DNA of 53,023 nt. Source: a virus. Lineage: Duplodnaviria > Caudoviricetes. Shown here piece by piece: positions 35,899 through 49,357 of the stretch. The notes beneath the pieces were generated by a model that did no database searches, was not told where the DNA came from, and was given only the letters and a program-made list of their open reading frames with translations. The position numbers and the translations under genes are program-made. The stretch spans positions 1 through 53,023 of IMG/VR virus record IMGVR_UViG_3300025674_000057. The stretch is one strand, 5' to 3'. Every line of letters begins with the position of its first letter. Position 1 is the first letter of the stretch.

Positions 35899-35933
35899 GG
35901 AGGTCCCGTTGTGGTTGAGAGTATTGTAGCAGA

Positions 35934-36683
35934 TCAGAGGGGGATGACGCGAACGTCGTCGGCACCCGCCACCAACTGATCCACACGGTCCTGCTGCAAC
36001 TTCAGAACGACCGACGAATTGCGGTTCGCTTTGGACAAACCCAGGAAAGCACGAATCCCGTTGTTGCTGGTGACGCGGAGGCGGAGACCGACCTCAACGA
36101 TGTGGTGATCTTTGACCAGCACGACCTTACGGGAAGTCATGCCGCGACCCTTCTCAACGCGGGCACCGTATCCGTCTTCTAGGAGACGGGCAGCGCGGAT
36201 CGCTTCGTGTTCGATCACGTAGCAGCGTTGGGCGTCGGTGTCGGTGATCGCCATCACCATGCCGTCGTTTTCTGCGATCAGTTCGGAGCGCAACCAAGCG
36301 GTGAGGGTCACGGGGTCGATCGAATCAAGAGCAGCAGAGCAGATCTCATTAAAGAGGTCGCGGCACTCATTCACAATCGCGTCGCGCTTAGCGGTCTCCC
36401 ACTGACGGGCGTCGCTGACGAACTTGAGAAAGGGATTGAACTGAGAGGCGTCGATCAGGGTGTCGGTCTTTGAGGTGTTAACCCAATCGAAAGATCCGTT
36501 CTTCAGTCCTGCCTTGTGCTTGATGCTGATTCGCTTAGCGCCTGCCGTGGCGTCTGCCTTGTTATGGGTGCCGCCCTTATGGGTCACGATGTCGGGAAAG
36601 ACGCGGTGATCGTTGAGCAGTTGAATGGTCGCCAGTTCGTTGGCGATGCCTTCGTGATGGGTGCTGCCGTTGGTTTTGAACAT
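35934..36683 (-). CDS. Putative PD-(D/E)xK restriction-like endonuclease
   Basis: N-terminal helix Glu (GIANE), then GG..NKAD..AG...ISIK (D...S-x-K variant active site); 249 aa; high GC. Confidence 0.5.
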   Translation of the reverse strand: MFKTNGSTHHEGIANELATIQLLNDHRVFPDIVTHKGGTHNKADATAGAKRISIKHKAGLKNGSFDWVNTSKTDTLIDASQFNPFLKFVSDARQWETAKRDAIVNECRDLFNEICSAALDSIDPVTLTAWLRSELIAENDGMVMAITDTDAQRCYVIEHEAIRAARLLEDGYGARVEKGRGMTSRKVVLVKDHHIVEVGLRLRVTSNNGIRAFLGLSKANRNSSVVLKLQQDRVDQLVAGADDVRVIPL

Positions 36684-37247: not shown

Positions 37248-37269
37248 GCTTGTCTGTGTTGTTGAGACT

Positions 37270-37329
37270 ATTATAGGCACAGGGTGTGGCGGAATCAGGC
37301 AAGCAGTGTACGGTTTGCCCACTGTCCCA
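37270..37329 (-). promoter_or_regulatory. Early promoter unit 1 (-10 TATAAT plus 9-6-9 palindrome)
   Basis: GTGTACGGT-ttgccc-ACTGTCCCA at 37306-37329, 30 bp from the -10. Confidence 0.75.
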
Positions 37330-37519
37330 CACTGCCCTTACGGTTGATCAGCAGTCGCAGCATGTCACGACGGCGGCAGTTGTGGGCACTGACTGAACCA
37401 TTGTGCCATTTCACGATGGCACGACGGGTCAGGGGTGATAGGATGACATTCTGGCAGGCAGTGCTAGGACGCTGCACGTTCATGAACACGGGCAGGTGAT
37501 CTAGGGCGAAGTCCAGCAT
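37295..37519 (-). CDS. Basic hypothetical protein
   Basis: Has its own promoter unit; ends SVGQWAN, reading through the next palindrome. Confidence 0.7.
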   Translation of the reverse strand: MLDFALDHLPVFMNVQRPSTACQNVILSPLTRRAIVKWHNGSVSAHNCRRRDMLRLLINRKGSVGQWANRTLLA

Positions 37520-37541
37520 GGTTGTCGTTTGAACTGAGGTC

Positions 37542-37601
37542 ATTATAAGGGGTCAGGGGTGCCCTTTGGGGCGGATGGTGGACGGTTCAGCAACCGAACA
37601 C
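37542..37601 (-). promoter_or_regulatory. Early promoter unit 2
   Basis: TATAAT 37542-37547; GTGGACGGT-tcagca-ACCGAACAC 37578-37601. Confidence 0.75.
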
Positions 37602-37811
37602 CAGGTCAGCGATCTGATCAACCTGGGACACCTTTCCGCCTGCTCGCATCCACTTGTAAGCAGGACCGCTGGTAGGGACGCGCCAGATCATGCACTCCTC
37701 ACCCATCCCATGGAATTCAGCGATCCGCTGGGCATGGTTGACGGAGGTTGCCCACCAGCAAGCGTGCTGATCGAACTTGGACCAGTAGGCGGGTTGAACG
37801 GCGAAGGTCAT
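37587..37811 (-). CDS. Hypothetical protein
   Basis: 74 aa with its own promoter; stop lies in the palindrome spacer. Confidence 0.7.
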   Translation of the reverse strand: MTFAVQPAYWSKFDQHACWWATSVNHAQRIAEFHGMGEECMIWRVPTSGPAYKWMRAGGKVSQVDQIADLVFGC

Positions 37812-37834
37812 CTTGGTTCGTTTGGTATGAAACC

Positions 37835-37894
37835 ATTATAGGGGGCAGATCCGCCGCAATCGGGGAATGGGTGGACAGTACGCTCATCGTCACG
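37835..37894 (-). promoter_or_regulatory. Early promoter unit 3
   Basis: TATAAT 37835-37840; GTGGACAGT-acgctc-ATCGTCACG 37871-37894. Confidence 0.75.
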
Positions 37895-37924
37895 CGGGCA
37901 GCCGAAAGTTAGTTATACAAACTC

Positions 37925-38836
37925 TCAGGGAGTTTGTGCAAACTTAGCGTTGTTGAAGTTAGCATGACTGAAACGCTCACGATTCACCAGTTTCATTGTA
38001 CCGAACTCATTGGAGTAGACATAACCTTCGGCGTCAATTCGATCAGATCCAATGTAAGCAGCAGGACCATCATTGCGGCAAAGGAAGAGTGCATCATCTT
38101 TGATAGATTTGATCAGTTTCCAGTAAGCAATCAGAGTGTAATCACAATCAAATGCATTATCATCAATCGGCGTACCTTCGCGGATGCACTTATTCAATGC
38201 CTTCTTAATCTCTGCTGCTTTCTTATCATCGACAAACTGAACACATTGCGCCATTTGCTTAGCGAACTTGATCACATCATCAAGGTCATGAAAACGGCGC
38301 AGTCCGTCATCATAATACCCAGAGAAGATCCGTGCCTTGGGTTTCACAAACTTACAGTTATGTCCATCCTCTAAGTTAACAGTCAGAGGGATTGCCCAAC
38401 TATCACGAAGGTCATCATTTGCCTCATAACGGGTATGTGGAGCAATGATGATTTCCTCATGAATTACTTCACTGAACTGATAGGTGATTGTGTTCGGAGT
38501 GTATTCTGACTGTCCACCGAATCCGATGAAGTCACCTTGGAAAATGCCATCTGTATGAGGCAACCAATCAAAACAAGCGTGAAGAATCTTTGCAACTTCG
38601 CCTGCATGGTTAGCATCAATGTCCGCATGAGATTCGTTGATCTTAATCTTTACTTTGTTGAAGACACTTTTGGTGCCCACGAAGAAATTACCCGTAGCAG
38701 GATTGCGTCCCCAAACTACAGCGGGAGCACCGTCGATCTTAACGGACAGGGCACCTGCTGCCTCAAACCAGTCCAGGGCGTTCAGGTCGCCCGTGAGGAT
38801 GGTGTCTTCGGGGTGTTCGATGTGTTTGTTTTGCAT
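37925..38836 (-). CDS. DUF6267-like protein with ligase/capping-enzyme-type nucleotidyltransferase motifs
   Basis: HIEHPED; SVKIDG (KxDG motif I); IFQGDFI (III); EGYV (IV); MKLV.R (V). Start reassigned to ATG 38836. Confidence 0.7.
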   Translation of the reverse strand: MQNKHIEHPEDTILTGDLNALDWFEAAGALSVKIDGAPAVVWGRNPATGNFFVGTKSVFNKVKIKINESHADIDANHAGEVAKILHACFDWLPHTDGIFQGDFIGFGGQSEYTPNTITYQFSEVIHEEIIIAPHTRYEANDDLRDSWAIPLTVNLEDGHNCKFVKPKARIFSGYYDDGLRRFHDLDDVIKFAKQMAQCVQFVDDKKAAEIKKALNKCIREGTPIDDNAFDCDYTLIAYWKLIKSIKDDALFLCRNDGPAAYIGSDRIDAEGYVYSNEFGTMKLVNRERFSHANFNNAKFAQTP

Positions 38837-38842
38837 GAGAGT

Positions 38843-38936
38843 ACAATACACGGTTTTGGGGTCTTGTGCGGGTTTAGTGGACAGTTCCCTAAAGTGTCCA
38901 CAGTCGGCTGCCTGCGGCATCCCCTGGCTCTACAAT
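38843..38936. promoter_or_regulatory. Early promoter unit 4, apparently bidirectional
   Basis: Minus-strand -10 TATTGT 38843-38848; GTGGACAGT-tccctaa-AGTGTCCAC 38877-38901; plus-strand TACAAT 38931-38936. Confidence 0.65.
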
Positions 38937-39022
38937 AGGTTCACAACCGAAGGAGGGGCAGGGTCGCCCTGATGACGAAAAAAATCGACACTCAGGCAGC
39001 TCAATTTTAAATTAACTTAATT

Positions 39023-39049
39023 AAAAAAAAGGGGAGATTAAATCCCCCC
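39023..39049 (-). terminator. Rho-independent terminator
   Basis: GGGGGGATTTAATCTCCCC followed by T8 on the minus strand, just after the 39057 stop. Confidence 0.85.
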
Positions 39050-39056
39050 GAATTAA

Positions 39057-39398
39057 TCAGGCAAACACATAACCACTGCAGAAATCTTCGGTCTTGTATA
39101 CATTCTGACCGTTAACTGCACCCACAAACTTTCTCACATACCAGAGGAAATCTTTCTGAAATACACCTTCACCAGCAATGCAGAATTCAGAGCAAAGTGC
39201 ATTCAAACGGGATTTTGTGGTGGTGGATTGCCAACCATCGTCAAAAATGGTCATGCTGGTGTCATCAATCATGGCAATCTTGTTGCCGTGCAGATACACA
39301 AAAGAAACACCATCCATGGTAACAACTTGAGTGTTTCCAGATGACCAGTTCTCATTTGCCTTGATAGCAGCGATCATCTGGGTTTCGATCTTACGCAT
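39057..39398 (-). CDS. Conserved phage hypothetical protein
   Basis: MRKIE, VYLHGN.IA, GWQS.TTKSRLNA, GVFQK.F.W motifs. Confidence 0.85.
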   Translation of the reverse strand: MRKIETQMIAAIKANENWSSGNTQVVTMDGVSFVYLHGNKIAMIDDTSMTIFDDGWQSTTTKSRLNALCSEFCIAGEGVFQKDFLWYVRKFVGAVNGQNVYKTEDFCSGYVFA

Positions 39399-39446
39399 GA
39401 GAGAGAAGAGAAAGGACGTGGGAGGGTGCTGTCCCCTCCACCTCTA

Positions 39447-39554
39447 TACAATACAGCATTTTGGGGGTCGTGCCAAAATCGTGTGTAGGTTGCTCAACCG
39501 TCCACCCGCGGCTGCGATTCTCAATAGTAAAAATACTTGAGAATCGAAACGGTT
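39447..39554 (-). repeat. Promoter unit 5 plus GATTCTCAA hairpin; ~108-bp direct repeat, copy 1
   Basis: About 90/108 identical to 40300-40407 by hand alignment. Confidence 0.85.
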
Positions 39555-39566
39555 AGTGATAGAAAC

Positions 39567-39728
39567 TCACTGACCGTTTGTGTAACTTCCTAGAAGATGT
39601 TCACCCTGACGAACTTCGGCATAACCAAATTCTTCAGAGAGATCTAAACACAAACCCCATGCATCGTCGATATCAACAAAGGAAGAATTTTCGTAAGGTG
39701 CAGATGGGCAGTGAACAGAATAACGCAT
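39567..39728 (-). CDS. 53-aa hypothetical protein
   Basis: Hand-read: MRYSVHCPSAPYENSSFVDIDDAWGLCLDLSEEFGYAEVRQGEHLLGSYTNGQ. Confidence 0.7.
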   Translation of the reverse strand: MRYSVHCPSAPYENSSFVDIDDAWGLCLDLSEEFGYAEVRQGEHLLGSYTNGQ

Positions 39729-39761
39729 GATGATGTTAATGAAGGAACGAATGAGTTAGTG

Positions 39762-40016
39762 TTAACGAAGGAGTTGCAGTTTCACAACCTCAGGCACACT
39801 ATGATCCTCTCTCACAGTGTGAATGTGGAAATTAGGATTGAGACGTTGGCATGTAGCAATTGCATCCTCTTTAGTGGCAGCAATGTAACCCAACTCATCA
39901 CGCATAATGTGACCATTAGGACGTTCAAAACGACCGGAAATGATGAACTTGGTTTCGTGAATTGCCATAAGCTGATTGTCAGTTTGGAGTGCGATTGTGC
40001 AAGGGTCAGTGTACAT
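39762..40016 (-). CDS. Hypothetical protein
   Basis: 84 aa; TGATG-coupled to the upstream ORF; starts MYTDPCT. Confidence 0.7.
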   Translation of the reverse strand: MYTDPCTIALQTDNQLMAIHETKFIISGRFERPNGHIMRDELGYIAATKEDAIATCQRLNPNFHIHTVREDHSVPEVVKLQLLR

Positions 40017-40276
40017 CAGTCGATGTAAATGTTTCGGAGGTCGTTACGATTGTCGCAGGATTCCCACACAGAGTAGAAAGAATTCCATGCACCTTCGTTA
40101 TCAACAAAGGAGTCAATATCGAGCATCTCACATACCCAATCATATGCCATATCGATGTCGGCATTTGTATCATTCACGAATGCACACATCTGACCCATAA
40201 TGTCATCCCAAGTTGCTTGCATTTCGGGGGAGATAGAGAACATGCCGTTTGAATAAGTGAAGAGGAAAGTTGCCAT
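40016..40276 (-). CDS. Acidic hypothetical protein (paralogue of 41079-41291)
   Basis: FV.DTNADIDMAYDWVCEM; start reassigned downstream of the promoter. Confidence 0.7.
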   Translation of the reverse strand: MATFLFTYSNGMFSISPEMQATWDDIMGQMCAFVNDTNADIDMAYDWVCEMLDIDSFVDNEGAWNSFYSVWESCDNRNDLRNIYID

Positions 40277-40299
40277 TGCTTGTGTTTCTTTGACCCTTC

Positions 40300-40407
40300 T
40301 ACAATACATGATTTTGGGGGTCGTGCCCATTTTGTGTTCCACCTATCCGACCGTCCACCCGCGGCTGCGATTCTCAATAATAAAAGTACTTGAGAATCGA
40401 AACGGTT
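40300..40407 (-). repeat. Promoter unit 6 plus GATTCTCAA hairpin; direct repeat, copy 2
   Basis: See copy 1; palindrome TGTTCCACC-tatccg-ACCGTCCAC at 40335-40358. Confidence 0.85.
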
Positions 40408-40411
40408 TATA

Positions 40412-40570
40412 TCAACTAGCAGGAAAGTTACGGCAGACAGCATCACACAAAACCTTCACAAGTTCAGAGTCGTTTGTGATACCATACTCTTGGAAATACT
40501 CCTCAATGATACAATCAATGTCCTCCATAAGTTGTTCACGAGCAGTCAGCATTTCAAGATTAGTGTTCAT
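40412..40570 (-). CDS. Hypothetical protein
   Basis: REQLMEDIDCI...LCDAVC.NFP. Confidence 0.7.
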   Translation of the reverse strand: MNTNLEMLTAREQLMEDIDCIIEEYFQEYGITNDSELVKVLCDAVCRNFPAS

Positions 40571-40602
40571 TTTAGAATAGGAGAAAGATGATACGAAAGA
40601 CA

Positions 40603-40737
40603 TCAATAGTCGATGTTAGCCTTGAGATAATCTTCTACGTCAAACTTATCATCTTTCTCCCATTCTTCTTTATACTCGATGACATCGTAGATCTCACCGG
40701 GAGCATCAACAATTTCAGACCAAGTTGCATCAAACAT
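40603..40737 (-). CDS. 44-aa acidic hypothetical protein
   Basis: Hand-read: MFDATWSEIVDAPGEIYDVIEYKEEWEKDDKFDVEDYLKANIDY. Confidence 0.65.
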   Translation of the reverse strand: MFDATWSEIVDAPGEIYDVIEYKEEWEKDDKFDVEDYLKANIDY

Positions 40738-40765
40738 AATCAAATAGCAAAGGGACAGTTAGTGA

Positions 40766-40966
40766 TTACCAAGAGAGAACAATACCCTGTCCAGGGTCAG
40801 CAATTCTCACATTTTCTTTCTGTTTAACAAACATTTTCTTCCAAGTTGATTGTCCATCAATCTCACCAACGATAAAATCTACGGTGCGGGTTGATACTTT
40901 CACCCCTGCCAATCCGTTGAGCACGAGTGAGCAACCTACGCAAACTTCAGAGAATGGAACAATCAT
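40766..40966 (-). CDS. Hypothetical protein
   Basis: First ORF behind promoter unit 7. Confidence 0.6.
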   Translation of the reverse strand: MIVPFSEVCVGCSLVLNGLAGVKVSTRTVDFIVGEIDGQSTWKKMFVKQKENVRIADPGQGIVLSW

Positions 40967-40991
40967 TGGAGTGAAATGTCTCAACTTAAAT

Positions 40992-41049
40992 ACAATACAC
41001 GATTCTGGGGTCTTGTGGCGGTTTGGTGGACACCTTGCCGACCGTCACA
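40992..41049 (-). promoter_or_regulatory. Early promoter unit 7
   Basis: TATTGT 40992-40997; GTGGACACC-ttgccg-ACCGTCACA 41026-41049. Confidence 0.7.
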
Positions 41050-41078
41050 GCGGGTCAGCCGCCGCGAGTATAAAGAAC

Positions 41079-41291
41079 TCACGGGCAGTTGTACCTAGAA
41101 TCGTTCATGTATTCTTTATACACCTCAGCAACTTCTTCCCAATGCTCATCACGAAGTTCACCACACATGTTCTCCATCCAATCATAAACCATGCCCCAAT
41201 CTGCATCATTTTCCATAATGAATTGAGGCAGAGACTGCAGGTAAAACTGGAAAGAATTCATGGCGAAAGTGCAGGGGTCGGTGTAAACCAA
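41079..41291 (-). CDS. Acidic hypothetical protein
   Basis: Probable TTG start (VYTDPCT...), FIMENDADWGMVYDWMENM; start position uncertain. Confidence 0.65.
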   Translation of the reverse strand: MVYTDPCTFAMNSFQFYLQSLPQFIMENDADWGMVYDWMENMCGELRDEHWEEVAEVYKEYMNDSRYNCP

Positions 41292-41318
41292 AATCAGGTC
41301 GTTTTCGAACTTGAAACT

Positions 41319-41377
41319 ACAATACACGATTTTGGGGGGATATCAACCCCCCTTGTGACAGTTCTCAGATCGTCCGC
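41319..41377 (-). promoter_or_regulatory. Early promoter unit 8
   Basis: TATTGT 41319-41324; TGTGACAGT-tctcag-ATCGTCCGC 41354-41377. Confidence 0.7.
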
Positions 41378-41676
41378 ACGTAGTTATAAACAGAGCGACA
41401 ATCGTTGTAGAATTCTTTACACTCAGGCACGAACACAGTATTAATCCATGCCCAGAAAGTCTTTGCACCTTCGATAACCTGAAGCACGAACAATTGAGTC
41501 CGTTCGGTCATATCATGCTCTTTCCACTTCTGAGCAATCACAGTAGCAATTGCAGCAACGATTAGGCACAGGTTCTCAACACCATCCATGAAAGTGTTGT
41601 AGTGTTTCTTATAATCAATCTCGACAATCATCTCCACGAATGCATCAACGGGAGGGAAAGATTTGGTCAGTTCCAT
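41365..41676 (-). CDS. Hypothetical protein with a hydrophobic/amphipathic helix
   Basis: FPPVD.F, LCLIVAAIATVIA; stop lies in the palindrome spacer. Confidence 0.75.
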   Translation of the reverse strand: MELTKSFPPVDAFVEMIVEIDYKKHYNTFMDGVENLCLIVAAIATVIAQKWKEHDMTERTQLFVLQVIEGAKTFWAWINTVFVPECKEFYNDCRSVYNYVRTI

Positions 41677-41736
41677 TGTTGTTTAAAAAAAAAGGATTTG
41701 TGGGGGAAAATGTAGCGAATTCCCGACCACAAAACC

Positions 41737-41873
41737 AACATAATCGATCTCGGCGCACAAGTCAACCCATCTGCGCCAGTTCTCCAACTGTCCACCATTC
41801 TCAATAAGACTTAGTTATTGAGAATCAATAAGATCTTTTAAATGAGAATGGGTCCAGTCTCCGAACTGGCACA
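41737..41873 (-). promoter_or_regulatory. Early promoter unit 9, hairpin and a second (orphan) palindrome
   Basis: TTGACT-17-TATGTT; TGCGCCAGT-tctcca-ACTGTCCAC 41772-41795; ATTCTCAATAA-7-TTATTGAGAAT 41797-41825; GGGTCCAGT-ctccga-ACTGGCACA 41850-41873. Confidence 0.7.
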
Positions 41874-42038
41874 TTAAAAGATATCGGAGTAATCCTTGAT
41901 GGTAATATTAATATCCTCGTCTCCTTCTAGCTCCAGAAGATCTTTCCAGTCAAGATCTTCTAGTTCTAGATCATCATAACACATGATGTCTAGTGTTACA
42001 CGTACTAGGCGTTTTTGTGCGACCATGTGTGCAGGCAT
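41874..42038 (-). CDS. Small acidic hypothetical protein
   Basis: Hand-read: MPAHMVAQKRLVRVTLDIMCYDDLELEDLDWKDLLELEGDEDINITIKDYSDIF; TTGCGT-17-TATAAT at 42062-42090. Confidence 0.7.
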   Translation of the reverse strand: MPAHMVAQKRLVRVTLDIMCYDDLELEDLDWKDLLELEGDEDINITIKDYSDIF

Positions 42039-42067
42039 GACTCTCGTGCTGTGTGTACTAGATTATA

Positions 42068-42253
42068 TCATGCATAATGCTTATACGCAAGCGCATCATA
42101 ATCTAGTGCATCTCGTGTGTAGTCGTCATCGTCATATGAATCTAGTGCTTGTGCATCTAGTGCATATGATTGCATATATGTCTCATACATCTCGTCGAGA
42201 TCGTATGTGTAATCTTGTGTGAATGAGTAGTCGAGATCGTAGTCGTCGTACAT
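42068..42253 (-). CDS. Asp/Tyr-rich low-complexity peptide
   Basis: 61 aa behind TTGCGA-17-TATAAT (42287-42315); contains no Gly, Pro or Trp. Confidence 0.55.
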   Translation of the reverse strand: MYDDYDLDYSFTQDYTYDLDEMYETYMQSYALDAQALDSYDDDDYTRDALDYDALAYKHYA

Positions 42254-42448
42254 AATTCTCGTCGAGATTGTGTATGATGCTTTATGATTATACTGTATTC
42301 TCGTCGAGATCGCAAGTCCCTATAATGCCTGATTCTCGTCGAGATGCATAATAATATATATGTATTCTCGTCTAGATTTGTGTTATTATGCACATAATGC
42401 TCGTCGAGATTCATTATAGCATAATCTCGCCTAGATGTCTAGTCTAGA
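42189..42448. repeat. Array of ~9 TCTCG-N-CGAGA / TCTAG-N-CTAGA palindromes
   Basis: Copies start at 42190, 42226, 42257, 42299, 42334, 42366, 42399, 42425 and 42438. Confidence 0.9.
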
Positions 42449-42494
42449 TTTTATAAGACTGTGTGGGTCTCAGAGTTTTTCGCCGCCCCGTGAC

Positions 42495-42523
42495 TTGACG
42501 AACCGCGCTCCTTATGCTACGCT
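42495..42523 (+). promoter_or_regulatory. Plus-strand (antisense) sigma70 promoter TTGACG-17-TACGCT with extended TG
   Basis: -35 at 42495-42500, TG at 42515-42516, -10 at 42518-42523; points into the tandem repeat. Confidence 0.55.
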
Positions 42524-42543
42524 CGCTAAACTTGCATCAGGGA

Positions 42544-42682
42544 GGCACCTTTACATAAGATTATCGGCACCTTTACATAAGATTATCGGCACCTTTACAT
42601 AAGATTATCGGCACCTTTACATAAGATTTCTATGAGATTATCGGCACCTTTACATAAGATTTACATAAGACTTCTATGAGAT
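42544..42682 (+). repeat. 22-bp tandem repeat GGCACCTTTACATAAGATTATC built from 11-bp subunits
   Basis: Three perfect copies (42544, 42566, 42588) and two partial copies (42610, 42643) separated or followed by 11-mer TTTCTATGAGA-type units. Confidence 0.95.
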
Positions 42683-42823
42683 AAAACCATCTATTCTCAA
42701 CAATAATACCTTATTGATTCTCAATTAATCTAAACTATTGAGAACTGTATAAACAACAACTTTATATTTAAAAAGGTATTTTTTTAATTAAAACAAGGTT
42801 AAAACACCCAGATTAAGGCATTT

Positions 42824-43075
42824 TTACCATTTTTTCACTGGACACTGTGCAGCAGTCAGTCCTGCCTTATGTTCCATATAACAACCACACTTCTTACATC
42901 TCTTTGAGTTCTGTTCAAAGTGTTCACAACCTAGACAAAGACTTAATCTACGACTCTTCTCTAATGGTTCAACAAACAACTTATTATTCTTAATTGCATC
43001 ACGAATTACATCAGCAATTAACAATGTTGAATTCTTTGCTTGTTCTGGTAATGATGGAAACTGATCTTCAGACAT
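42824..43075 (-). CDS. Small Cys-rich (CxxC/CxxCxC) putative metal-binding protein
   Basis: R...CLGC.........CKKCGC.M..K......CP..KW. Confidence 0.75.
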   Translation of the reverse strand: MSEDQFPSLPEQAKNSTLLIADVIRDAIKNNKLFVEPLEKSRRLSLCLGCEHFEQNSKRCKKCGCYMEHKAGLTAAQCPVKKW

Positions 43076-43080
43076 ATGAC

Positions 43081-43233
43081 CTAATTGAATATTGGAATGA
43101 TTTCACTATTTACATATCCTTCATTCATCACATATTTCTCCCAACGTACAGCATCTTCAATTGTATAAAACACTGCTTTCTGTTGAGAGACTTTATTCTT
43201 CTTCTTTCGTTGATAGATGACTTGATACTTCAT
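43081..43233 (-). CDS. 50-aa hypothetical protein
   Basis: Hand-read: MKYQVIYQRKKKNKVSQQKAVFYTIEDAVRWEKYV... Confidence 0.65.
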   Translation of the reverse strand: MKYQVIYQRKKKNKVSQQKAVFYTIEDAVRWEKYVMNEGYVNSEIIPIFN

Positions 43234-43240
43234 AATGCAA

Positions 43241-43507
43241 TTAAGGATCAGAATAACGATAAAGTTGTGACTTATATAAATCCTCTGAACTTCTTGACTT
43301 TACATACTCCAACTCATTCCAATACTGTGGATAACATACTACACAACAATGAGTCTTCTTATGAAAATTGACCAGATTATCAGGTTTATCTTTTACAGAA
43401 ATCTCAATTGTACAATATTCACTATCAACAAAATACACCCATCCTTCTAAATCAGTATGAGAGTTTTTCCACCTTACATAATCATTTAACTTAGGGACAT
43501 AAGACAT
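43241..43507 (-). CDS. Hypothetical protein
   Basis: YVP.LNDYV.W, EGWVYF, W.EL.YVKSR. Confidence 0.75.
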   Translation of the reverse strand: MSYVPKLNDYVRWKNSHTDLEGWVYFVDSEYCTIEISVKDKPDNLVNFHKKTHCCVVCYPQYWNELEYVKSRSSEDLYKSQLYRYSDP

Positions 43508-43824
43508 TGCTCTAATGGATTTAACTTGAGTTGCATTGCAGAATATGGAGTCGTTTTGTTTATATCTACTTGATCACCTTGTTTGACGGAATTGATTGGT
43601 GCATAGTAGGTGTCTGTTTTTGTGTTATAGAATCCCCAGATACAAACAGATTCATCATGAGAATTGTAATTAAACCCATGCTGATGTACAGTCCAAATTG
43701 AAAGAACATGACGTTTAAATTGTAACGTTCGGTAGTAGTATCCTTCTGGGGGACGGTGAATGAAAGATGCTGGGAGTTCATGATTCACGAGTCGCTCGGA
43801 GATGATTGGGATTGTATCCTTCAT
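43486..43824 (-). CDS. Hypothetical protein (true start probably ~43788)
   Basis: FIH.PPEGY.Y, IWGFY..K...Y.AP.N, TTPYSAM. Confidence 0.75.
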   Translation of the reverse strand: MKDTIPIISERLVNHELPASFIHRPPEGYYYRTLQFKRHVLSIWTVHQHGFNYNSHDESVCIWGFYNTKTDTYYAPINSVKQGDQVDINKTTPYSAMQLKLNPLEQCLMSLS

Positions 43825-43930
43825 GAATCAAGGATTGTAGTTTTTCAGATGCTTGTGAACGAGTCAGGTGTTCTTCAATAGGTTCCCAACCTGTTGTACA
43901 AAACTCTTCAATACGATACAGTGCTTCCAT
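43778..43930 (-). CDS. 50-aa hypothetical protein
   Basis: Hand-read: MEALYRIEEFCTTGWEPIEEHLTRSQASEKLQSLIHEGYNPNHLRATRES. Confidence 0.65.
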   Translation of the reverse strand: MEALYRIEEFCTTGWEPIEEHLTRSQASEKLQSLIHEGYNPNHLRATRES

Positions 43931-43938
43931 AATACTAA

Positions 43939-44175
43939 TCAGGTGGTAAAAGATTCAACAACATGAGATTGAACATCATCGGCAAGTGTATACACACGAG
44001 CATCATTGATATTCTTTCTTAAATTACTATAATACTCTGGATACTGCTCATTATCAGAATCAGTAATCAGATCAAAACATTCCTCATTACTCTCCGCAAT
44101 TACATTCCAAACACCACCATACTCTGAAGCAGGAAAAGGAATGAAATGATCAACGATGTAAAGAAACTTCGTCAT
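43939..44175 (-). CDS. Hypothetical protein
   Basis: LYIVDH..PFP.SEYGG; canonical TTGACA-17-TAAAAT promoter at 44199-44227. Confidence 0.8.
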   Translation of the reverse strand: MTKFLYIVDHFIPFPASEYGGVWNVIAESNEECFDLITDSDNEQYPEYYSNLRKNINDARVYTLADDVQSHVVESFTT

Positions 44176-44188
44176 TGTCTTTTATAAA

Positions 44189-44359
44189 TTACTCCTTGAT
44201 TTTAGTTGATTGTGTAAGATTTGTCAATTGTCGATTTAATTCATACTTAATTCCATATAACTTACCACACATATAATTCTCATAAGAATTACCTTTCAAT
44301 AGTGAGAGCAAATTATCAACCTGCATTTGAGCAAGAATGAGTTTGGTTTCTTCAGTCAT
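44189..44359 (-). CDS. 56-aa hypothetical protein
   Basis: Hand-read: MTEETKLILAQMQVDNLLSLLKGNSYENYM...YELNRQLTN. Confidence 0.65.
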   Translation of the reverse strand: MTEETKLILAQMQVDNLLSLLKGNSYENYMCGKLYGIKYELNRQLTNLTQSTKIKE

Positions 44360-44541
44360 CAGAGAAACTCCGCCATGTAATAATCTACAGTCACTTCTAA
44401 CTCTGATGCCTTCTTCTCATAAAACTGATTCGTATAGTCCTCTGCTTCTTTCCATTGCTCATAAGAATGAATGTTTTCTTCGGAGTGATTCATAAAATCA
44501 GAAAATGCAGAAAGAAATTGTTTGATGTCTTCGTCGTTCAT
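44359..44541 (-). CDS. Acidic hypothetical protein
   Basis: Ends EKKASELEVTVDYYMAEFL; start reassigned to MNDED. Confidence 0.7.
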   Translation of the reverse strand: MNDEDIKQFLSAFSDFMNHSEENIHSYEQWKEAEDYTNQFYEKKASELEVTVDYYMAEFL

Positions 44542-44542
44542 A

Positions 44543-44746
44543 TCAGAAAGATGGTACAACATCATTGCGAATACCAGTCTCAGATTGATCCATTTGTTCC
44601 CAGATTGTATGAAGTTTATGATACAATACAGAAACACTTCCATACTCACGAGCAATTAAATACTCATCACGTCCATCTAATTGTTGAAGTGCCGTTAACA
44701 ATATACCAATCTCATGTACATTTAGATTCATACTCGTTTCGGTCAT
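44543..44746 (-). CDS. Hypothetical protein
   Basis: LNVHEIG.LL.AL; AGGAGG upstream of ATG 44746. Confidence 0.7.
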   Translation of the reverse strand: MTETSMNLNVHEIGILLTALQQLDGRDEYLIAREYGSVSVLYHKLHTIWEQMDQSETGIRNDVVPSF

Positions 44747-44857
44747 ATTCCTCCTGTAGTTTGCGTAAAAATTGAATCTCACGATCGATTTGTTCAATGT
44801 CTTCCAAAAGTTTCACCTTGCGTATACTAAGTTCAAGAATACTACTCTCAAATTCCA

Positions 44858-45061
44858 TCATTTTAAATCAATACGATCGAATACTAACATACCAATTTCA
44901 AAAAACAACTCATCATCCATATCACCCATAATGTTTCGAATACCATCGGCAACACTATCCTGCATCGCCTGAGTCACGGTATCATCATTAATTATATACT
45001 CAATGATCGCGGGTTTTAATGCATCCGCAATCTTAGAAACAGAAGAATGAGAAAGTTTCAT
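44858..45061 (-). CDS. Hypothetical protein
   Basis: 67 aa, TAATG-coupled. Confidence 0.7.
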   Translation of the reverse strand: MKLSHSSVSKIADALKPAIIEYIINDDTVTQAMQDSVADGIRNIMGDMDDELFFEIGMLVFDRIDLK

Positions 45062-45201
45062 TAAAACAGTTCCAGTTGAGTGAAAAGAATGTGATCGCAG
45101 CAGGTATCATCATCCTGCAAATCAATCATATCAGTATCAATATGTTTGGTGAGTTTACCAAAGAGAAAGTCAATAAACTCATGATCTTCTTTAGTGAACA
45201 T
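45061..45201 (-). CDS. 46-aa hypothetical protein
   Basis: MFTKEDHEFIDFLFGKL; start reassigned. Confidence 0.65.
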   Translation of the reverse strand: MFTKEDHEFIDFLFGKLTKHIDTDMIDLQDDDTCCDHILFTQLELF

Positions 45202-45352
45202 TGCAGTCAGGGTGTGGTTGTGGAAGTGTAGCACAGATGCGGGAGATACGTTCCATCTGTTCAATCTTACTCTCTCCTTGATAGACCATCTTCATGGCGC
45301 TGATAGCAGCAAGAACAAGGAAGACTACAAGGAGAGGATTTTTAGAAAACAT
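45191..45352 (-). CDS. 53-aa membrane-anchored peptide
   Basis: Hand-read: MFSKNPLLVVFLVLAAISAMKMVYQG...CATLPQPHPDC. Confidence 0.65.
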   Translation of the reverse strand: MFSKNPLLVVFLVLAAISAMKMVYQGESKIEQMERISRICATLPQPHPDCNVH

Positions 45353-45509
45353 TAGTCCACTTGGTGTGATTTGCTTTGGTGATACGACCTTCTGCTAACA
45401 TGTTATCACACACATTAACGAAGACTTGAAACTTCTGCTCACGAGTGAGAGAATGACCACAAGCAGCAGTCTTAATCACACGGAGCATTTGTGCTTTGGT
45501 AGTGATCAT
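45342..45509 (-). CDS. 55-aa hypothetical protein
   Basis: Hand-read: MITTKAQMLRVIK...KFQVFVNVCDNMLAEGRITKANHTKWTNVF. Confidence 0.7.
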   Translation of the reverse strand: MITTKAQMLRVIKTAACGHSLTREQKFQVFVNVCDNMLAEGRITKANHTKWTNVF

Positions 45510-45534
45510 GGATCTCTGTTGCGTTGATGAGACT

Positions 45535-45593
45535 AGTATAAGGCATCCAGAAGGCGTTTCCAGATGCCCTGTGCCGCTTTTTAAACCGCCATA
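45535..45593 (-). promoter_or_regulatory. Early promoter unit 10
   Basis: TATACT 45535-45540; GGCATC..GATGCC inverted repeat; TGTGCCGCT-ttttaa-ACCGCCATA 45570-45593. Confidence 0.65.
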
Positions 45594-45829
45594 GATTGCT
45601 GGAAGTATAACCCAACTCGCTTCATCATGTCAATTAGTGCGAACTGAATCTCTTCCAGTTCTTCTACATCAGCATCAGATTCCCAGAAGTCAACCATATC
45701 AAACTCTTCCATGTTCACAGTACCGTTCTGATACATTGGAGCATAGAACAATTCACCTTCGGTGGAAACCGTGTAGATGCAACCGTGATTTTCAACAGTC
45801 AGGAACACGCCAGAAAAAACAGGGGTCAT
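45581..45829 (-). CDS. Hypothetical protein
   Basis: 82 aa; stop lies in the palindrome spacer. Confidence 0.7.
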   Translation of the reverse strand: MTPVFSGVFLTVENHGCIYTVSTEGELFYAPMYQNGTVNMEEFDMVDFWESDADVEELEEIQFALIDMMKRVGLYFQQSMAV

Positions 45830-45868
45830 TGTAGGAAAAGTGGAAGGTTTAATGCGGAGTTTGTGGAA

Positions 45869-46111
45869 TCAGCAAGCCATGGGAGAATAATCAGAACCTT
45901 GGTATGCTTCCAGGTTGAAGTCAGTCACAGTAGCACCGTTAGCAATGTACTGATTCACATCATAAACCATATCAGATTTGGTGATGGTAGCAAAGGTGAC
46001 CATTTGAGTCCGCTCACAACCAGGATGCCAGGTCACACGGCGAACGAAACCCTTACCAGCAGAAGTGAGGGGATAGTAATCAATTTGCTTGGCGGCGTTC
46101 AGGAGTTGCAT
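45869..46111 (-). CDS. Hypothetical protein
   Basis: IDYYP, FVRRVTW; has its own promoter unit. Confidence 0.75.
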   Translation of the reverse strand: MQLLNAAKQIDYYPLTSAGKGFVRRVTWHPGCERTQMVTFATITKSDMVYDVNQYIANGATVTDFNLEAYQGSDYSPMAC

Positions 46112-46136
46112 GGGGTGTTCCCTCGATTACCTTGTA

Positions 46137-46195
46137 ATTATACTGCCTCTCTCAGGCGATTCGGGAAGAACTGGGACACTTCCACCTCTGGCACA
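46137..46195 (-). promoter_or_regulatory. Early promoter unit 11
   Basis: TATAAT 46137-46142; TGGGACACT-tccacc-TCTGGCACA 46172-46195. Confidence 0.7.
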
Positions 46196-46614
46196 CCAAA
46201 AGTATCAGTCAACCACCAATCATATAACCTTTCTTCTTCCTCTCGTGCCTCAATTTCATGTGGTTGATACCAATACTCCCAATTTTCCACTGGTGTTTTA
46301 CAATAACACAATTTTCCATAACGGTGCCGCAGGGAACCACGTATCCACTGCGCCAGGTGGGTCAGTTCATGCAAAAGAGTTTTTATATACAACTCCTTAT
46401 CCATGTAAGTGTTCAATTCTATAATGAAGTGGCGAGGACGATGAGTATCACCCACAACATCACAATATCCATGAACTCCTTCACGTTTCAGACCACGATG
46501 AACAATATCCACCGTGATCTTATGGCGTGGAAAGAAGTTATTCAGAAACCAAGAGGTAACATCCTCACAGAGGATTTTAGAATAACCGTATCCAGAATGG
46601 CAGATGTAAGACAT
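46138..46614 (-). CDS. HEXXH zinc metallopeptidase-like protein
   Basis: GYC, TLLHELTHLAQ, downstream Y..QPHEIEA (third-ligand Glu). Confidence 0.75.
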   Translation of the reverse strand: MSYICHSGYGYSKILCEDVTSWFLNNFFPRHKITVDIVHRGLKREGVHGYCDVVGDTHRPRHFIIELNTYMDKELYIKTLLHELTHLAQWIRGSLRHRYGKLCYCKTPVENWEYWYQPHEIEAREEEERLYDWWLTDTFGVPEVEVSQFFPNRLREAV

Positions 46615-46826
46615 GAACCCCAGTGAAGAAACCAAACGAAAGAACCAATAAAGATGAGTTTATGAGTTGCAGTCATGTTTCATTCCCATCAACTTTCCGT
46701 AGATTTTAGCGTAAAACATTTGAATTGGTTTTTTATTATCACTACAAACTTGTTGCTTTACAAGTTCCATCAGTGCCTCTACTTCTTTTACAGTTAAATC
46801 AGCATCTATGTTGTGTTCCGTGACCC

Positions 46827-47030
46827 TCATCCCCATGCCTCAATGTATTCCATGAGTGTAAAGTTCTCATCGGTATCAGTTTCTTCTACTAACTCATCAT
46901 AAGACATACCCTTTAGCATGTTGAGATAATCCTCTGGGGCAATGTCCACATCAGGATCATAATCATCATGACATAACCAGACATATTCATTGAAGAGTGC
47001 TTCGATTAATGCTTCTTTAGGAAAAATCAT
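46827..47030 (-). CDS. Acidic hypothetical protein
   Basis: EY.WLCHDD, ELVEET.TD. Confidence 0.75.
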   Translation of the reverse strand: MIFPKEALIEALFNEYVWLCHDDYDPDVDIAPEDYLNMLKGMSYDELVEETDTDENFTLMEYIEAWG

Positions 47031-47191
47031 GACGCATCATCAGTAACCAAAGAATCATCAGGGAGATTATTTGCTCGGGTTTTCATGCGATTCATTTTTG
47101 AAATGTTCCAACCATTTGTATCAGCATCATGCACAACTCCATCCAGTTGGCGACGCTCGCTCTCGGTGTGATAGTGACGTTGATCATTCAT
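47027..47191 (-). CDS. 54-aa hypothetical protein
   Basis: Hand-read: MNDQRHYHTESERRQLDGVV...; GAGG RBS; ATGA overlap. Confidence 0.65.
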   Translation of the reverse strand: MNDQRHYHTESERRQLDGVVHDADTNGWNISKMNRMKTRANNLPDDSLVTDDAS

Positions 47192-47227
47192 AATTTGTCC
47201 TCAAATGAACATAAAAATTATAGCACA

Positions 47228-47626
47228 TCACCGTGCATAAAGATAACCACCTGCCCAGTCTGCATTTTCCAGCAACCACTCACGTTGCTCAATGATTCGC
47301 AGATCATAACGAACACCTTTTGCAGGTGCTTTGAATGATGCAGACTTATACACTTCACCAGTCTTCTTATCAATGAAAGCGTGAACACTACGGGAAGGAG
47401 GACGATTGTTGTTAGGAATCTCCATAATGATTTTGAAATACTTACGTCCTTCCTCAGGATAGAACTTATAGACAGGAGCATCATAACCACCAACTTTACC
47501 GTGATTGCGGGACTTGAAGTTGTCCATCAGAGCATCACACAGCATCAGAGTCCACTTGCGGACATTCAGTTGGATGGTGTTCCTGGCGTCTTGAGTGGCG
47601 CAGTAGTCAGCGAAGGTGGTAGTCAT
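47228..47626 (-). CDS. Conserved myovirus hypothetical protein
   Basis: GRKY.KI, SVHAFIDKKTGEVYK.AS..APAK.VRY, ADWAGGYLY. Confidence 0.85.
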   Translation of the reverse strand: MTTTFADYCATQDARNTIQLNVRKWTLMLCDALMDNFKSRNHGKVGGYDAPVYKFYPEEGRKYFKIIMEIPNNNRPPSRSVHAFIDKKTGEVYKSASFKAPAKGVRYDLRIIEQREWLLENADWAGGYLYAR

Positions 47627-47647
47627 CGGTTGCTTGCGTATGAACGT

Positions 47648-47706
47648 ATTATAGGGCGTCCTAGGTGCCTCTCAAGGCACCATGTGACACTTCACTTACC
47701 GACCCC
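47648..47706 (-). promoter_or_regulatory. Early promoter unit 12
   Basis: TATAAT 47648-47653; TGTGACACT-tcactt-ACCGACCCC 47683-47706. Confidence 0.7.
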
Positions 47707-47931
47707 ATAGTCAGGTGCTTTTGCTTCCAATTGACTAATCTCTTCATCCAACTGGCGCAGAATACCTTCCCTGGTATATGCTCCAGTAGCATTTTTACGT
47801 CGATCCATTTCTTCTTCAATCTTTTGAGTGATAGAAGCATGGCGGCGGATCTCTCCACCCATAGACATCATCTTTTTAGTTTGACTCATGCAAAACTGAA
47901 GTTGCATAAGTTCCATATCATCAAATTGCAT
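47692..47931 (-). CDS. Hypothetical protein
   Basis: GGAG RBS; stop lies in the palindrome spacer. Confidence 0.75.
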   Translation of the reverse strand: MQFDDMELMQLQFCMSQTKKMMSMGGEIRRHASITQKIEEEMDRRKNATGAYTREGILRQLDEEISQLEAKAPDYGVGK

Positions 47932-47945
47932 AATTAGTCTCCAAA

Positions 47946-48356
47946 TTAAACTGCAAGTGCTCCTGCAGGAATTTCCTGACCTTCCATATAGGAATCACGC
48001 CAGGAGCAGGTATCATAGCACAACCAACCTTCGCTCTGAGTATAAACATACGAATACTCTTCGCTGTTTTGAAGATACTCACCCAGGTCTTTATCAAGGC
48101 GAGGAGGAATATTCTCACCGCGCTGAGAGTAGTATTGTGGACCATAAACTCCCTTCACACCAGTATCATCCCAGCGGTCATCAGTCCAGCAGGAAGACAT
48201 ATCGCCACCGTCAATCAGTTCGGAAGCAAGAGACTTTCCGTTGTAATGAGTCTTCAGGATGCGACCCAACCACTCAGGATAACCGTCCCAGTGGTGATAA
48301 ACAGAGAGCACAGAACCGTCTTTGAGTTCAAGACCGATGCGAGCACGGGTGGCCAT
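47946..48356 (-). CDS. Conserved phage hypothetical protein
   Basis: MATRARIG, SVYHHWDGYP..LG..L, LIDGGD.S, EYSYVY. Confidence 0.85.
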   Translation of the reverse strand: MATRARIGLELKDGSVLSVYHHWDGYPEWLGRILKTHYNGKSLASELIDGGDMSSCWTDDRWDDTGVKGVYGPQYYSQRGENIPPRLDKDLGEYLQNSEEYSYVYTQSEGWLCYDTCSWRDSYMEGQEIPAGALAV

Positions 48357-48379
48357 TGGGGCGTCTGTCGATTACTTAG

Positions 48380-49357
48380 TTAGTATAAGGCATCCATCAG
48401 GGGATTCTGTGCCTCCTGTACCAGTTCGTCAACTGTCTCCTGAGCAATGCTGATAGCATCTGGGTTCACGTCCATCGTGATACAATTTCGGTTCAGGTTA
48501 AAAGCGGATATTGCTGTCGTTCCAGATCCGCAGAAGGGGTCTAGGACCCATCCACCCTCAGGACATGACGATTTTATGATACGTTCTAACAGTTTCAGGG
48601 GTTTTTGAGTGGGATATTTACGCTTATTCTTCTCAGATCGACTGATAAAGTATACATCATCCCACAGATTCTGCACGGGAACACCCTTGGACTCATGAGA
48701 ATAGATTTTTTTGTAAAGGTTGTTGCTGCCGTAGTGCAAACGGTCCTGGGCGTCCAGTTCTTCCAGTTTTTCCCTTGTTATACGAAACCCGTACTGAGGA
48801 TTATATCCTTTGTACTCAAATCGCGCACAAGGACGACTCTTTTCACCAGTAACTTTAGCAAGAGCATAATATCCAACTGCATCCTTATTTTGGAAACTAT
48901 TCGCAGCATAAACAGGATCAAGAGAGGTATATTCAACCTCAAAGTATGGACTACCCTTACGGAGCACCATGATACTGTCTACAATATTACCCCAACCGTT
49001 CTTGATATTGTTCTTAGGACCACTACGTTTCCAGGAGATATTGGTATAGAATGCATCCCGAACTTTACGATCAATCTTAGAAAGAACTAGAGCATTTCCA
49101 ATAAAGTTGTTGTGTGCGTACAACCAACCATTCTTATTCAGTTTTTTATATGCATTATTGATTACTTCAGCATACCAATCAATATAATCATCAAAGGAAC
49201 TCCAGGTATCAGAGAATCCTTTCTCTTGACCATCTTCCTCCTGCATGGTAAAGTCACGCTGCAATCCAAACGGAGGATCCATATAAATTAGGTCAAATGT
49301 CTGATCAATGGTATCTAATTCTTCTACTGGTTTTTGAAGGATCTTTATCTCAGACAT
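48380..49357 (-). CDS. Beta-class N6-adenine/N4-cytosine DNA methyltransferase
   Basis: Motif IV IYMDPPF precedes YPTQKP..LLERII and motif I VLDPFCGSGTT. Confidence 0.92.
   Translation of the reverse strand: MSEIKILQKPVEELDTIDQTFDLIYMDPPFGLQRDFTMQEEDGQEKGFSDTWSSFDDYIDWYAEVINNAYKKLNKNGWLYAHNNFIGNALVLSKIDRKVRDAFYTNISWKRSGPKNNIKNGWGNIVDSIMVLRKGSPYFEVEYTSLDPVYAANSFQNKDAVGYYALAKVTGEKSRPCARFEYKGYNPQYGFRITREKLEELDAQDRLHYGSNNLYKKIYSHESKGVPVQNLWDDVYFISRSEKNKRKYPTQKPLKLLERIIKSSCPEGGWVLDPFCGSGTTAISAFNLNRNCITMDVNPDAISIAQETVDELVQEAQNPLMDALY
48382..48440 (-). promoter_or_regulatory. Early promoter unit 13 (inside the MTase 3' end)
   Basis: TATACT 48382-48387; TGTACCAGT-tcgtca-ACTGTCTCC 48417-48440. Confidence 0.7.

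Follow-up and report, generated by a model that had tools for sequence, protein, structure and literature searches.

What are the palindrome-like sequences that recur between small genes in part of a phage genome, and why do several open reading frames (ORFs) end inside them? The question is raised by the window, i.e., the whole 53,023-nt stretch of viral DNA in IMG/VR record IMGVR_UViG_3300025674_000057, which by its gene content is a fragment (53 kb) of a T4-like cyanomyovirus. A sequence-only reading of this DNA had proposed an integron-like system in which each palindrome is a tyrosine-recombinase core site and a junction at which promoter-plus-ORF units are inserted, deleted or swapped. 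From its sequence we read each "palindrome" instead as the upstream end of a repeated bacterial-type promoter that precedes many of the small genes. The explanation that we favor, and hold to be reasonably probable, is a cyanophage system resembling the PeSL elements (early promoter plus stem-loop) of other T4-type phages, in which genes are swapped around repeated promoters. In part, the data bear this out, as gene units are exchanged at the promoter elements, though not specifically there.

A repeated promoter-like element precedes many small genes

Anchored on -10-like hexamers, a composite element was found 13 times between 37.3 and 48.4 kb (E1 to E13, Table 1), with all copies on the gene strand. 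Each copy begins with a 9-nt box similar to GTGGACnGT; after a gap of 6-7 nt comes a second 9-nt box, similar to ACnGTC(C)AC. The next 28-30 nt include a -35-like hexamer and lead to TATAAT/TATACT or TATTGT. A profile built from 11 copies gave 11 nhmmer matches at E<0.01, on the minus strand only and between 37.3 and 47.7 kb. The profile had no other match above the E=0.01 threshold in the window, and the element was absent from the structural half (1-35 kb). In relatives, the profile detected 103 copies in 47 of 80 related loci (L numbers below), on the gene strand every time, and 145 copies in 68 of 161 sequences once a second locus set was added. The 17-nt core motif was present in at least 120 further stretches of IMG/VR viral contigs.

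The family consensus is a conserved block of ~70 nt with the 3' end CAAAATCGTGTATTGTA, in which the -35 sequence T(C/T)GGCA sits 17 nt upstream of the -10 sequence TATTGT (or TATAAT in some copies). Ahead of the -35, GTGGACAGT followed by GTGGCACA is present in most members, and these two boxes are alike in direct, not inverted, orientation. A sigma-70 scan picked four element promoters (TTGAGA-16-TATAAT, TTGATA-16-TATTGT, TTGGCA-17-TATTGT and TTGACT-17-TATGTT), with matches at 9-11 of 12 positions; a good -35 is missing in several of the TATAAT-type copies. Window-wide, however, promoter-like sites numbered 41 vs 30 +/- 6.4 in shuffles, which is not clearly above. This anatomy suggests that the element is a host-type sigma-70 promoter with a conserved upstream region, perhaps bound by a regulator, and we take it neither for the core site of a recombinase nor for a hairpin that is conserved. 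We infer promoter activity, its early timing and any binding of a regulator at the upstream boxes. Among isolate phages, a BLAST search with a 72-nt element returned three partial matches only, and an isolate genome rich in copies, on which recombinases could be checked, did not turn up.

A 15-base pattern of the two GGCAC boxes was tried as a clue to a host regulator and proved uninformative, with at least 120 matches in 185,579 prokaryote genomes. The 80 matches listed were single and in unrelated bacteria, as chance predicts, and included two filamentous cyanobacteria and no picocyanobacteria. Within the window, a 236-aa protein (50319-51029, minus strand), conserved in 25 related loci, has a C-terminal MazE/AbrB-like match (PF04014, E=4.7e-5; 23.7 bits, slightly below the 24.7-bit cut-off); it is possibly a DNA-binding regulator and a candidate binder of the upstream boxes. 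At E10, the ATG of the 303-aa DUF6267 gene lies 6 nt after the -10 hexamer (38836-38848), and its N-terminus, MQNKHIEH, is kept in relatives; with so short a distance the mRNA may be leaderless.

Symmetry of the upstream boxes

For 11 copies, the best dyad with 9-nt arms and a 5-8-nt spacer within the 45-nt upstream segment was compared with 500 shuffles of each segment. One copy clearly beat its shuffles (38901-38877, 8/9, P=0.014) and another was borderline (37602-37577, 7/9, P=0.10), and the dyads of the copies at 47653, 46142, 45540, 41325, 37840 and 37275 were no better than shuffles (P=0.43-0.98). In a fixed register, where the spacing to the -10 sets the position of the dyad, pairing was 2-3 of 9 in three of the four dyads that hold spacer stops. 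The arms in the window share one consensus (GTGGACnGT and its complement), and the symmetry therefore exists at the level of the consensus, not copy by copy. Across the family (49 distinct full-length copies), the best complementarity was 5.16/9 vs 5.41/9 in shuffles, and strong dyads of two arm types occurred in a minority of relatives. The palindrome described earlier is thus retained as a consensus-level dyad of the window but not as a property of most copies or of the family. Searches with a strict dyad consensus returned 3+1 sites, which is above chance for a 6-nt spacer (0.07 expected) but missed most copies, and the pattern GTCCAC-N30-TAnnnT was found 15 times window-wide vs 11.8 expected, not above chance.

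A separate AT-rich hairpin of the type TTCTCAA...TTGAGAA precedes 11 of 115 elements, three of them in the window. It recurs 64 times in related loci (including L029/L026, L032, L034, L036 and L144), and its distal stem varies yet stays paired; the hairpin is perhaps another regulatory repeat that recombines. The sole clear intrinsic terminator lies at 39049-39031, ~130 nt upstream of E10.

Stop codons at the edge of the promoter core

The stop codons on which the integron-like proposal was built (37587, 41365, 45581, 47692 and 41874) are correctly placed in the sequence. In the fixed register, TGA 37589-37587, TGA 41367-41365 and TAA 45583-45581 lie wholly within the 6/7-nt gap. The fourth stop assigned to the spacer, TGA 47694-47692, falls there only in the register used earlier and in the fixed register straddles the spacer/right-arm boundary by one base. 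TAA 41876-41874 abuts the 9-nt arm 41873-41865, and the three ORFs said to read through the palindrome do so, ending at 37295 (20 nt before the -10), 46138 (inside the -10) and 48380 (last -10 base). Each of the four gap stops precedes the -10 by 39-41 nt and sits at the upstream edge of the promoter core, the point from which linkage to the downstream gene is tightest.

A naive null in which the stop is uniform over 100-160 nt gave P ~1e-4 to 7e-4 for 4 of 11. In none of its frames does the arm consensus include a stop triplet, and an ORF that enters the element can therefore first stop in the gap. The frame-aware null is the fairer one: 6 of 33 frames entering the left arm have their first stop in the spacer, and P=0.012-0.024 for 4 of 6-7, in a small sample and with a register picked after the fact. 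Family-wide, however, upstream-ORF stops ranged from ~-60 to +30, mostly upstream of the dyad, with 8/115 in the spacer bin (model positions 18-23) and 19/115 in positions 12-23. The stop enrichment thus appears in the window under the frame-aware test but is no general rule of the family, and tight packing against a constrained promoter core, the compaction that had been mentioned as an alternative from the start, explains the stop positions. With genes packed so densely, several upstream ORFs would enter the less constrained upstream part of the element and terminate where the last position is free ahead of the promoter core.

Gene replacement around the elements in close relatives

Breakpoint patterns can be seen directly in alignments of close relatives. 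Locus L001 is 95-99% identical to the window over 12.4 kb and differs from it at four places. In the first, a 2.1-kb part of the window (40992-38883), spanning the ORF at 40766-40966 through the Gp96 gene, is replaced by a 1.5-kb block that holds diverged or different genes; identity stops directly after the -10 of E7 and resumes at the right arm of E10 (~38884). The second is a diverged patch in a 74-aa ORF (~37743-37600), on either side of which E11 and E12 are identical. In the third, 37525-37220 (an 82-aa ORF, E13 and the first DUF7249 codons) is replaced by 30 nt, and in the fourth, 35921-35699 (a 64-aa ORF) is replaced by an 82-aa ORF homologue, with divergence beginning 2 nt past a TACAAT box. 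Three left ends therefore lie 0-22 nt after a -10 (0-2 nt at 40992 and 35921, 22 nt at 37525), and one right end lies at the spacer/right-arm boundary.

Single events were also compared between other relatives. Between L051 and L064, exactly one cassette and one element were lost between two 73-nt direct element repeats, and L029 and L026 differ by 287 nt between two 28-nt copies of the AT-rich hairpin. A 290-nt cassette is present or absent between L125 and L003, flanked by two dyads with the same 9-nt left arm, and this one indel looks like exchange at a dyad.

In a survey of 417 locus pairs sharing high-scoring segment pairs (HSPs) of at least 200 nt and at least 90% identity, we found 152 unique interruptions, 69 of which had a breakpoint within 1 kb of an element. 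The breakpoint lay inside the element window in 26 of these 69 nearby events, compared with ~18% expected from an occupancy of 9.2%. Left breakpoints were concentrated just after the -10 (7 of 14, model positions 68-72), whereas right breakpoints were spread from -19 to 97, and about 4 of 33 in-element breakpoints were near the spacer. The suggestion that indel breakpoints would map to the palindromes, as cassette junctions, is therefore right insofar as elements bound some events (e.g., in L001 and L051/L064) and hold breakpoints at about twice the random expectation, but the joints are mostly after the -10 or at start codons, the spacer is not supported as the junction, and exchange is not specific to elements.

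Linkage along the element was examined column by column. In 20 pairs with the same upstream and a different downstream gene, the whole element was alike through the -10; in 66 pairs with the same downstream and a different upstream gene, the stretch between the right arm and the -10 was strongly linked to the gene, the left arm and gap weakly. Joints are thus of two kinds, one past the -10 and one ahead of the promoter core, and neither points to one fixed site.

Metagenome contigs of four runs were aligned to 35.5-49.5 kb; such contigs cannot show circles or rare forms. The earlier proposal had suggested a search for rearranged junctions, and the main joints in these contigs were as follows. 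One joint runs from 41315 to 37217, from the E6 -10 to the body of DUF7249 via 30 other letters (2 runs), and another from 40992 to 39402, from the E7 -10 to the Gp96 start via 24 letters (1 run). The joint from 37810 to 37214 connects the start codon after E11 to the DUF7249 body (3 runs), and a backward joint from 37523 to 39401 connects the leader after E12 to the Gp96 start (3 runs). These joints show co-occurring relatives with the same promoters before other genes, and they lie after the -10 or at a start codon, not in the spacer. Three backward joints (39401>37523, 38889>37516 and 48435>47737) might stem from mini-circles but could equally be other gene orders of co-occurring relatives, and the short-sided joint 41049>46211 (side 26) is indistinguishable from other strains or repeats. 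The DUF7249 gene (window 37220; also in L078, L051, L064 and L148) follows no fewer than four distinct promoters or leaders among relatives and metagenome contigs. Similarity always begins ~9 codons into its ORF, so the N-terminus is variable or exchanged together with the leader.

A proposed role of the promoters as portable homology

In the reading that we prefer, a host sigma-70-type promoter of ~45 nt (a GTGnC(C)AC box, a -35 and a -10), preceded by ~20 nt of conserved upstream boxes, would drive one or a few small genes from each copy, and the boxes together with the promoter would occasionally be read as an imperfect dyad. The copies are conserved within and between related phages and would therefore be portable homology patches, or linkers; a causal role of the repeats in recombination is inferred. 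Homologous recombination by the phage, together with short-homology illegitimate events filtered by selection, would swap, delete and move cassettes, and the exchanged unit would be whatever lies between one -10 and the next element. The PeSL cassettes of T4-type coliphages and vibriophages are described in these terms.

Several results weigh against this reading. No stem-loop or terminator consistently accompanies the promoter (the hairpin precedes 11/115 elements, and the dyad equals shuffles in 49 copies). The breakpoint clusters mark the end of conserved element sequence, so the crossovers are not precisely located, and the approximately twofold enrichment is relative to random positions, not gene junctions, among pairs that are not phylogenetically independent. 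Neighbor adjacency is broken in most of 160 related loci at nearly every junction, and the broken fraction (~0.35-1.0, in a test that confounds gene loss with divergence) is alike at junctions with and without an element; elements are therefore not required for shuffling. Among 15 simple indels between close pairs, one lies between full elements, one within dyads and one between hairpins. One other adjoins an element, one is a tandem repeat, and the rest occur at 3-17-nt microhomologies without an element, mostly at start or stop codons (overlapping ATGA, ATG, TCTGA); two of these microhomology indels fall in relatives of the 45-47-kb part of the window.

The elements might be conserved promoters only, with no role in recombination, if microhomology events occur anywhere and selection keeps those whose breakpoints fall between a stop and the next functional promoter or start; breakpoints would then seem to coincide with element edges. 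Element-free junctions are broken at a similar rate, short microhomologies flank most simple indels, HSP ends at element edges are expected where conserved sequence meets variable sequence, and the stop positions fit compaction. Precise deletions between 73-nt elements and between 28-nt hairpins, however, would hardly arise without homology-driven exchange, breakpoints inside elements are about twice as frequent as expected at random, and mini-circles arising from such exchanges are described for other T4-type phages in the excerpted text of PMC2839356. We consider a purely transcriptional role possible but rather unlikely.

Far less probable, and in our judgment very nearly discounted, is the original proposal of an integron- or Xer-like system. 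In it, the dyad would serve a recombinase as core site, and cassettes made up of a right arm, promoter, ORF and left arm would be excised and rejoined within the 6-nt spacer or next to it. It can draw on the four stops in or at the gap, on the breakpoints at the spacer/right arm in two events (L001/window at E10 and L125/L003), on linkage that steps up at about the right arm in same-downstream pairs, and on the strong dyads of two arm types in some relatives. Yet breakpoints near the spacer are few (~4/33), the second breakpoint of the L001 replacement follows a -10 and is not in a spacer, the contig joints are after the -10 or at start codons, and the dyad is at shuffle level in the 49 family copies and in most window copies. 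Spacers differ from copy to copy, which classical tyrosine recombinases are not known to tolerate. Every unit has its own promoter, and genes are also gained or lost at element-free junctions with 3-9-nt microhomologies such as ATGA. Neither the tyrosine-recombinase profile PF00589 nor the serine-recombinase profile PF00239 had a match in the window record, itself 25% complete, or in any of six relatives with a completeness rating of 100% (G001-G003 and G006-G008); controls of these searches matched in 12-14 of 14 reference genomes (14 of 14 for PF00589). G006-G008 carry 2-5 element copies and G001-G003 carry 0-1, so the missing recombinases of the latter say little. A RecA/UvsX-like gene was present in 3/3 complete element-bearing relatives (G006-G008). 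The recombinase elsewhere in the genome that the integron-like mechanism called for was thus not found by these two profiles, and that mechanism is not supported by the dyad, the breakpoints or the promoters either.

Two further readings of the dyad can be weighed on the same evidence. The spacer/right-arm boundary could be a preferred joint targeted by an enzyme of neither the tyrosine nor the serine type, such as a phage or host nuclease or recombinase. A cassette would then consist of a right arm, promoter, ORF and the next left arm plus a spacer that supplies the stop, and the common hybrid dyads (GTGGAC-type left arm, GTGGCAC-type right arm) would be scars of exchange; this seems to us highly improbable. 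We hold it to be equally improbable that the dyad, in the manner of a PeSL stem-loop, is an RNA or DNA hairpin by which the upstream transcript is ended or stabilized. E10 and E12 are foldable, a few relatives have perfect 8-10-bp dyads, and 29% of 113 upstream segments fold with z<-2, but the low z-scores are mostly due to the separate AT-rich hairpin. The arms are conserved in sequence, not in pairing, no T-run is listed after the dyads, and an Rfam search of 35-50 kb at E<=1 matched no family. With pairing at shuffle level and the low z-scores traced to the AT-rich hairpin, the RNA-hairpin reading was rejected.

Comparison with known systems

Like integron cassettes, the units studied here are small co-oriented ORFs, some of which end in a downstream imperfect inverted repeat, and gene content varies at the resolution of single genes. 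Integron cassettes, however, are promoterless and depend on a common Pc, whereas these units carry their own -35 and -10; moreover, no IntI-type integrase gene was found (PF00589 search), there is no attC-like conserved structure, and breakpoints are spread over the element rather than confined to one core site. Tailed phages also gain morons, autonomous promoter-plus-ORF units added between genes, and in the work of Hendrix and Juhala and the modular theory of Susskind and Botstein, short conserved intergenic sequences were reportedly proposed as exchange points. Promoter-plus-ORF units and short conserved intergenic sequences are common to those cases and ours, but here one promoter family has more than 10 copies in 11 kb and is common to many genomes.

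The closest parallel is with PeSLs, which, in the excerpted text of the papers cited here, are strong sigma-70-like early promoters with a stem-loop terminator, repeated in the hyperplastic regions of T4-type phages (Arbiol et al. 2010, PMC2839356; Comeau et al. 2014, PMC4122927). They are described there from RB49/phi1, T4/PST and KVP40/nt-1, where they bound indels between close relatives (PMC2839356, PMC4122927), and crossovers in PeSL mini-circles lie between the -10 and the ATG/Shine-Dalgarno, in the stem-loop or beside it (PMC2839356). The same excerpts do not commit themselves on the help of a dedicated protein (PMC2839356, PMC4122927). For the cyanophage S-PM2, the excerpted account lists few PeSL candidates and judges the mechanism unlikely there (PMC4503421). 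As with PeSLs, a sigma-70-like promoter is repeated in a T4-like hyperplastic region, in numerous conserved and co-oriented copies that separate small ORFs, with -35 and -10 at a spacing of 16-18 nt (for our element, at the sequence level). Apparent crossovers map to various parts of the element, many of them between the -10 and the start codon, and apparently degraded half-elements are present. On the bounding of indels and replacements the evidence is mixed, as copies bound them in L001/window, L051/L064 and L029/L026 and breakpoints lie in elements in 26 of 69 nearby events, whereas most simple indels and most broken adjacencies here do not involve elements. The differences are the cyanobacterial host clade, with a consensus -35 of TyGGCA and -10 of TATTGT/TATAAT, and the upstream part of the element, where GTGGAC/GTGGCAC boxes, with an AT hairpin in some copies, take the place of a constant stem-loop or terminator directly upstream. 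Intergenic repeats carrying promoters are also described in excerpts on the halovirus HF2 (PMC8707807); the likeness, by description only, is that of repeated intergenic promoters, in an archaeal virus and with unrelated sequence.

Genomic setting and feature coordinates

The viral contig record, of which the window is the whole (53 kb), was rated 25% complete, and the minus strand carries all long ORFs. T4-type structural proteins are encoded at 1-35 kb (gp15 tail-sheath stabilizer, neck protein, gp8 and gp6), and the promoter-element region (37.3-48.4 kb) holds ~45 small ORFs, whose products include Kyanoviridae Gp96, DUF6267, DUF7717, DUF7249 and an N6/N4 DNA methyltransferase. The phage identity draws on Pfam matches to Kyano_Gp96, DUF6267, T4-gp15_tss, Gp6 and Gp8; DNA matches were small patches in Synechococcus phage or cyanophage myovirus records only, and homologues of every small ORF of the stretch were found in related viral contigs. 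From this gene content, the small-ORF stretch is identified as the hyperplastic region of a T4-like cyanomyovirus, beside the gp6/gp8/gp15 structural genes. The stretch or part of it was present in 23 of 24 listed metagenome runs from 18 studies, of aquatic or freshwater origin. Near-identical sequence in these 18 studies comes mostly from 2017, and with the same year and habitat they may be one campaign.

Other features of the window were noted. Two giant ORFs of 2362 and 4255 aa (9496-30945) lie between gp8-like and gp6-like baseplate genes. The G+C content at 35000-38000 is 46-57% vs 32-36% in most structural genes, and the GC-rich small genes with TATAAT-type promoters found there may originate in phages of high-GC hosts. 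A gene-free stretch (42100-42820) contains at least four tandem 22-nt repeats (42544-42683) and a 14-nt repeat present five times (42255-42410) with adjoining TATAAT boxes, and by its sequence it looks like a replication origin. The adjoining AT-rich block (~42692-42792) is 90-93% identical in L016, L018 and L136, compared with ~70% for the flanking genes.

Table 1. Predicted promoter elements and associated features of the window
Feature	Position	Strand	Details
E1, weak promoter-like copy	48382..48439	-	-10 TATACT 48387-48382; nhmmer E=0.84; no dyad at standard distance; methyltransferase ORF stop 48382-48380 overlaps last -10 base
E2, predicted promoter	47648..47706	-	TTGAGA-16-TATAAT, -10 at 47653-47648; pseudo-dyad 47706-47683
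E3, predicted promoter	46137..46196	-	-10 TATAAT 46142-46137; upstream ORF stop 46140-46138 within -10
E4, predicted promoter	45535..45594	-	-10 TATACT 45540-45535; stop TAA 45583-45581 in gap; arms 3/9
Orphan dyad 9-6-9, 6/9 complementary	41850..41873	-	Directly after stop 41876-41874; no -10 at standard distance; possibly a degraded half-element
AT-rich hairpin, TTCTCAA...TTGAGAA type	41799..41823	-	Perfect 9/9, P=0.002
E5	41737..41795	-	Dyad-like boxes 41795-41772; TTGACT-17-TATGTT 41765-41737; missed by nhmmer model
E6, predicted promoter	41319..41379	-	TTGATA-16-TATTGT; stop TGA 41367-41365 in gap; gene-plus-element arrangement shared with L001, L027, L016
E7, predicted promoter	40992..41049	-	-10 TATTGT 40997-40992; L001 identity ends right after -10
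E8, predicted promoter	40301..40359	-	-10 40306-40301; hairpin 40368-40399 directly upstream
E9, predicted promoter	39448..39507	-	TTGGCA-17-TATTGT; hairpin 39515-39546 directly upstream
E10, predicted promoter	38843..38901	-	Sole clearly significant dyad, 38901-38877, 8/9
E11, predicted promoter	37835..37894	-	-10 TATAAT 37840-37835
E12, predicted promoter	37542..37601	-	-10 TATAAT 37547-37542; 7/9 dyad; TGA 37589-37587 is last three spacer bases
E13, predicted promoter	37270..37329	-	-10 TATAAT 37275-37270; upstream ORF crosses dyad, stop 37297-37295; E13 and preceding ORF both missing from L001
Further promoter-like -10	35923..35936	-	TACAAT 35928-35923, 5 nt after 249-aa ORF stop; L001 identity ends 2 nt past box; next small ORF replaced

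Implications

No new recombination system emerges from these data; what they describe is a variant, in a cyanophage, of a kind of regulatory cassette already known. In the sea and in lakes, cyanomyoviruses rank with the most abundant viruses, and most of their unknown genes and genes for host interaction lie in hyperplastic regions. If active, the promoter family (at least 120 contig stretches) would provide a sequence handle for likely early genes as well as a concrete, testable route of gene exchange between phages, and the PeSL idea would extend from enterobacterial and vibrio phages to cyanophages.

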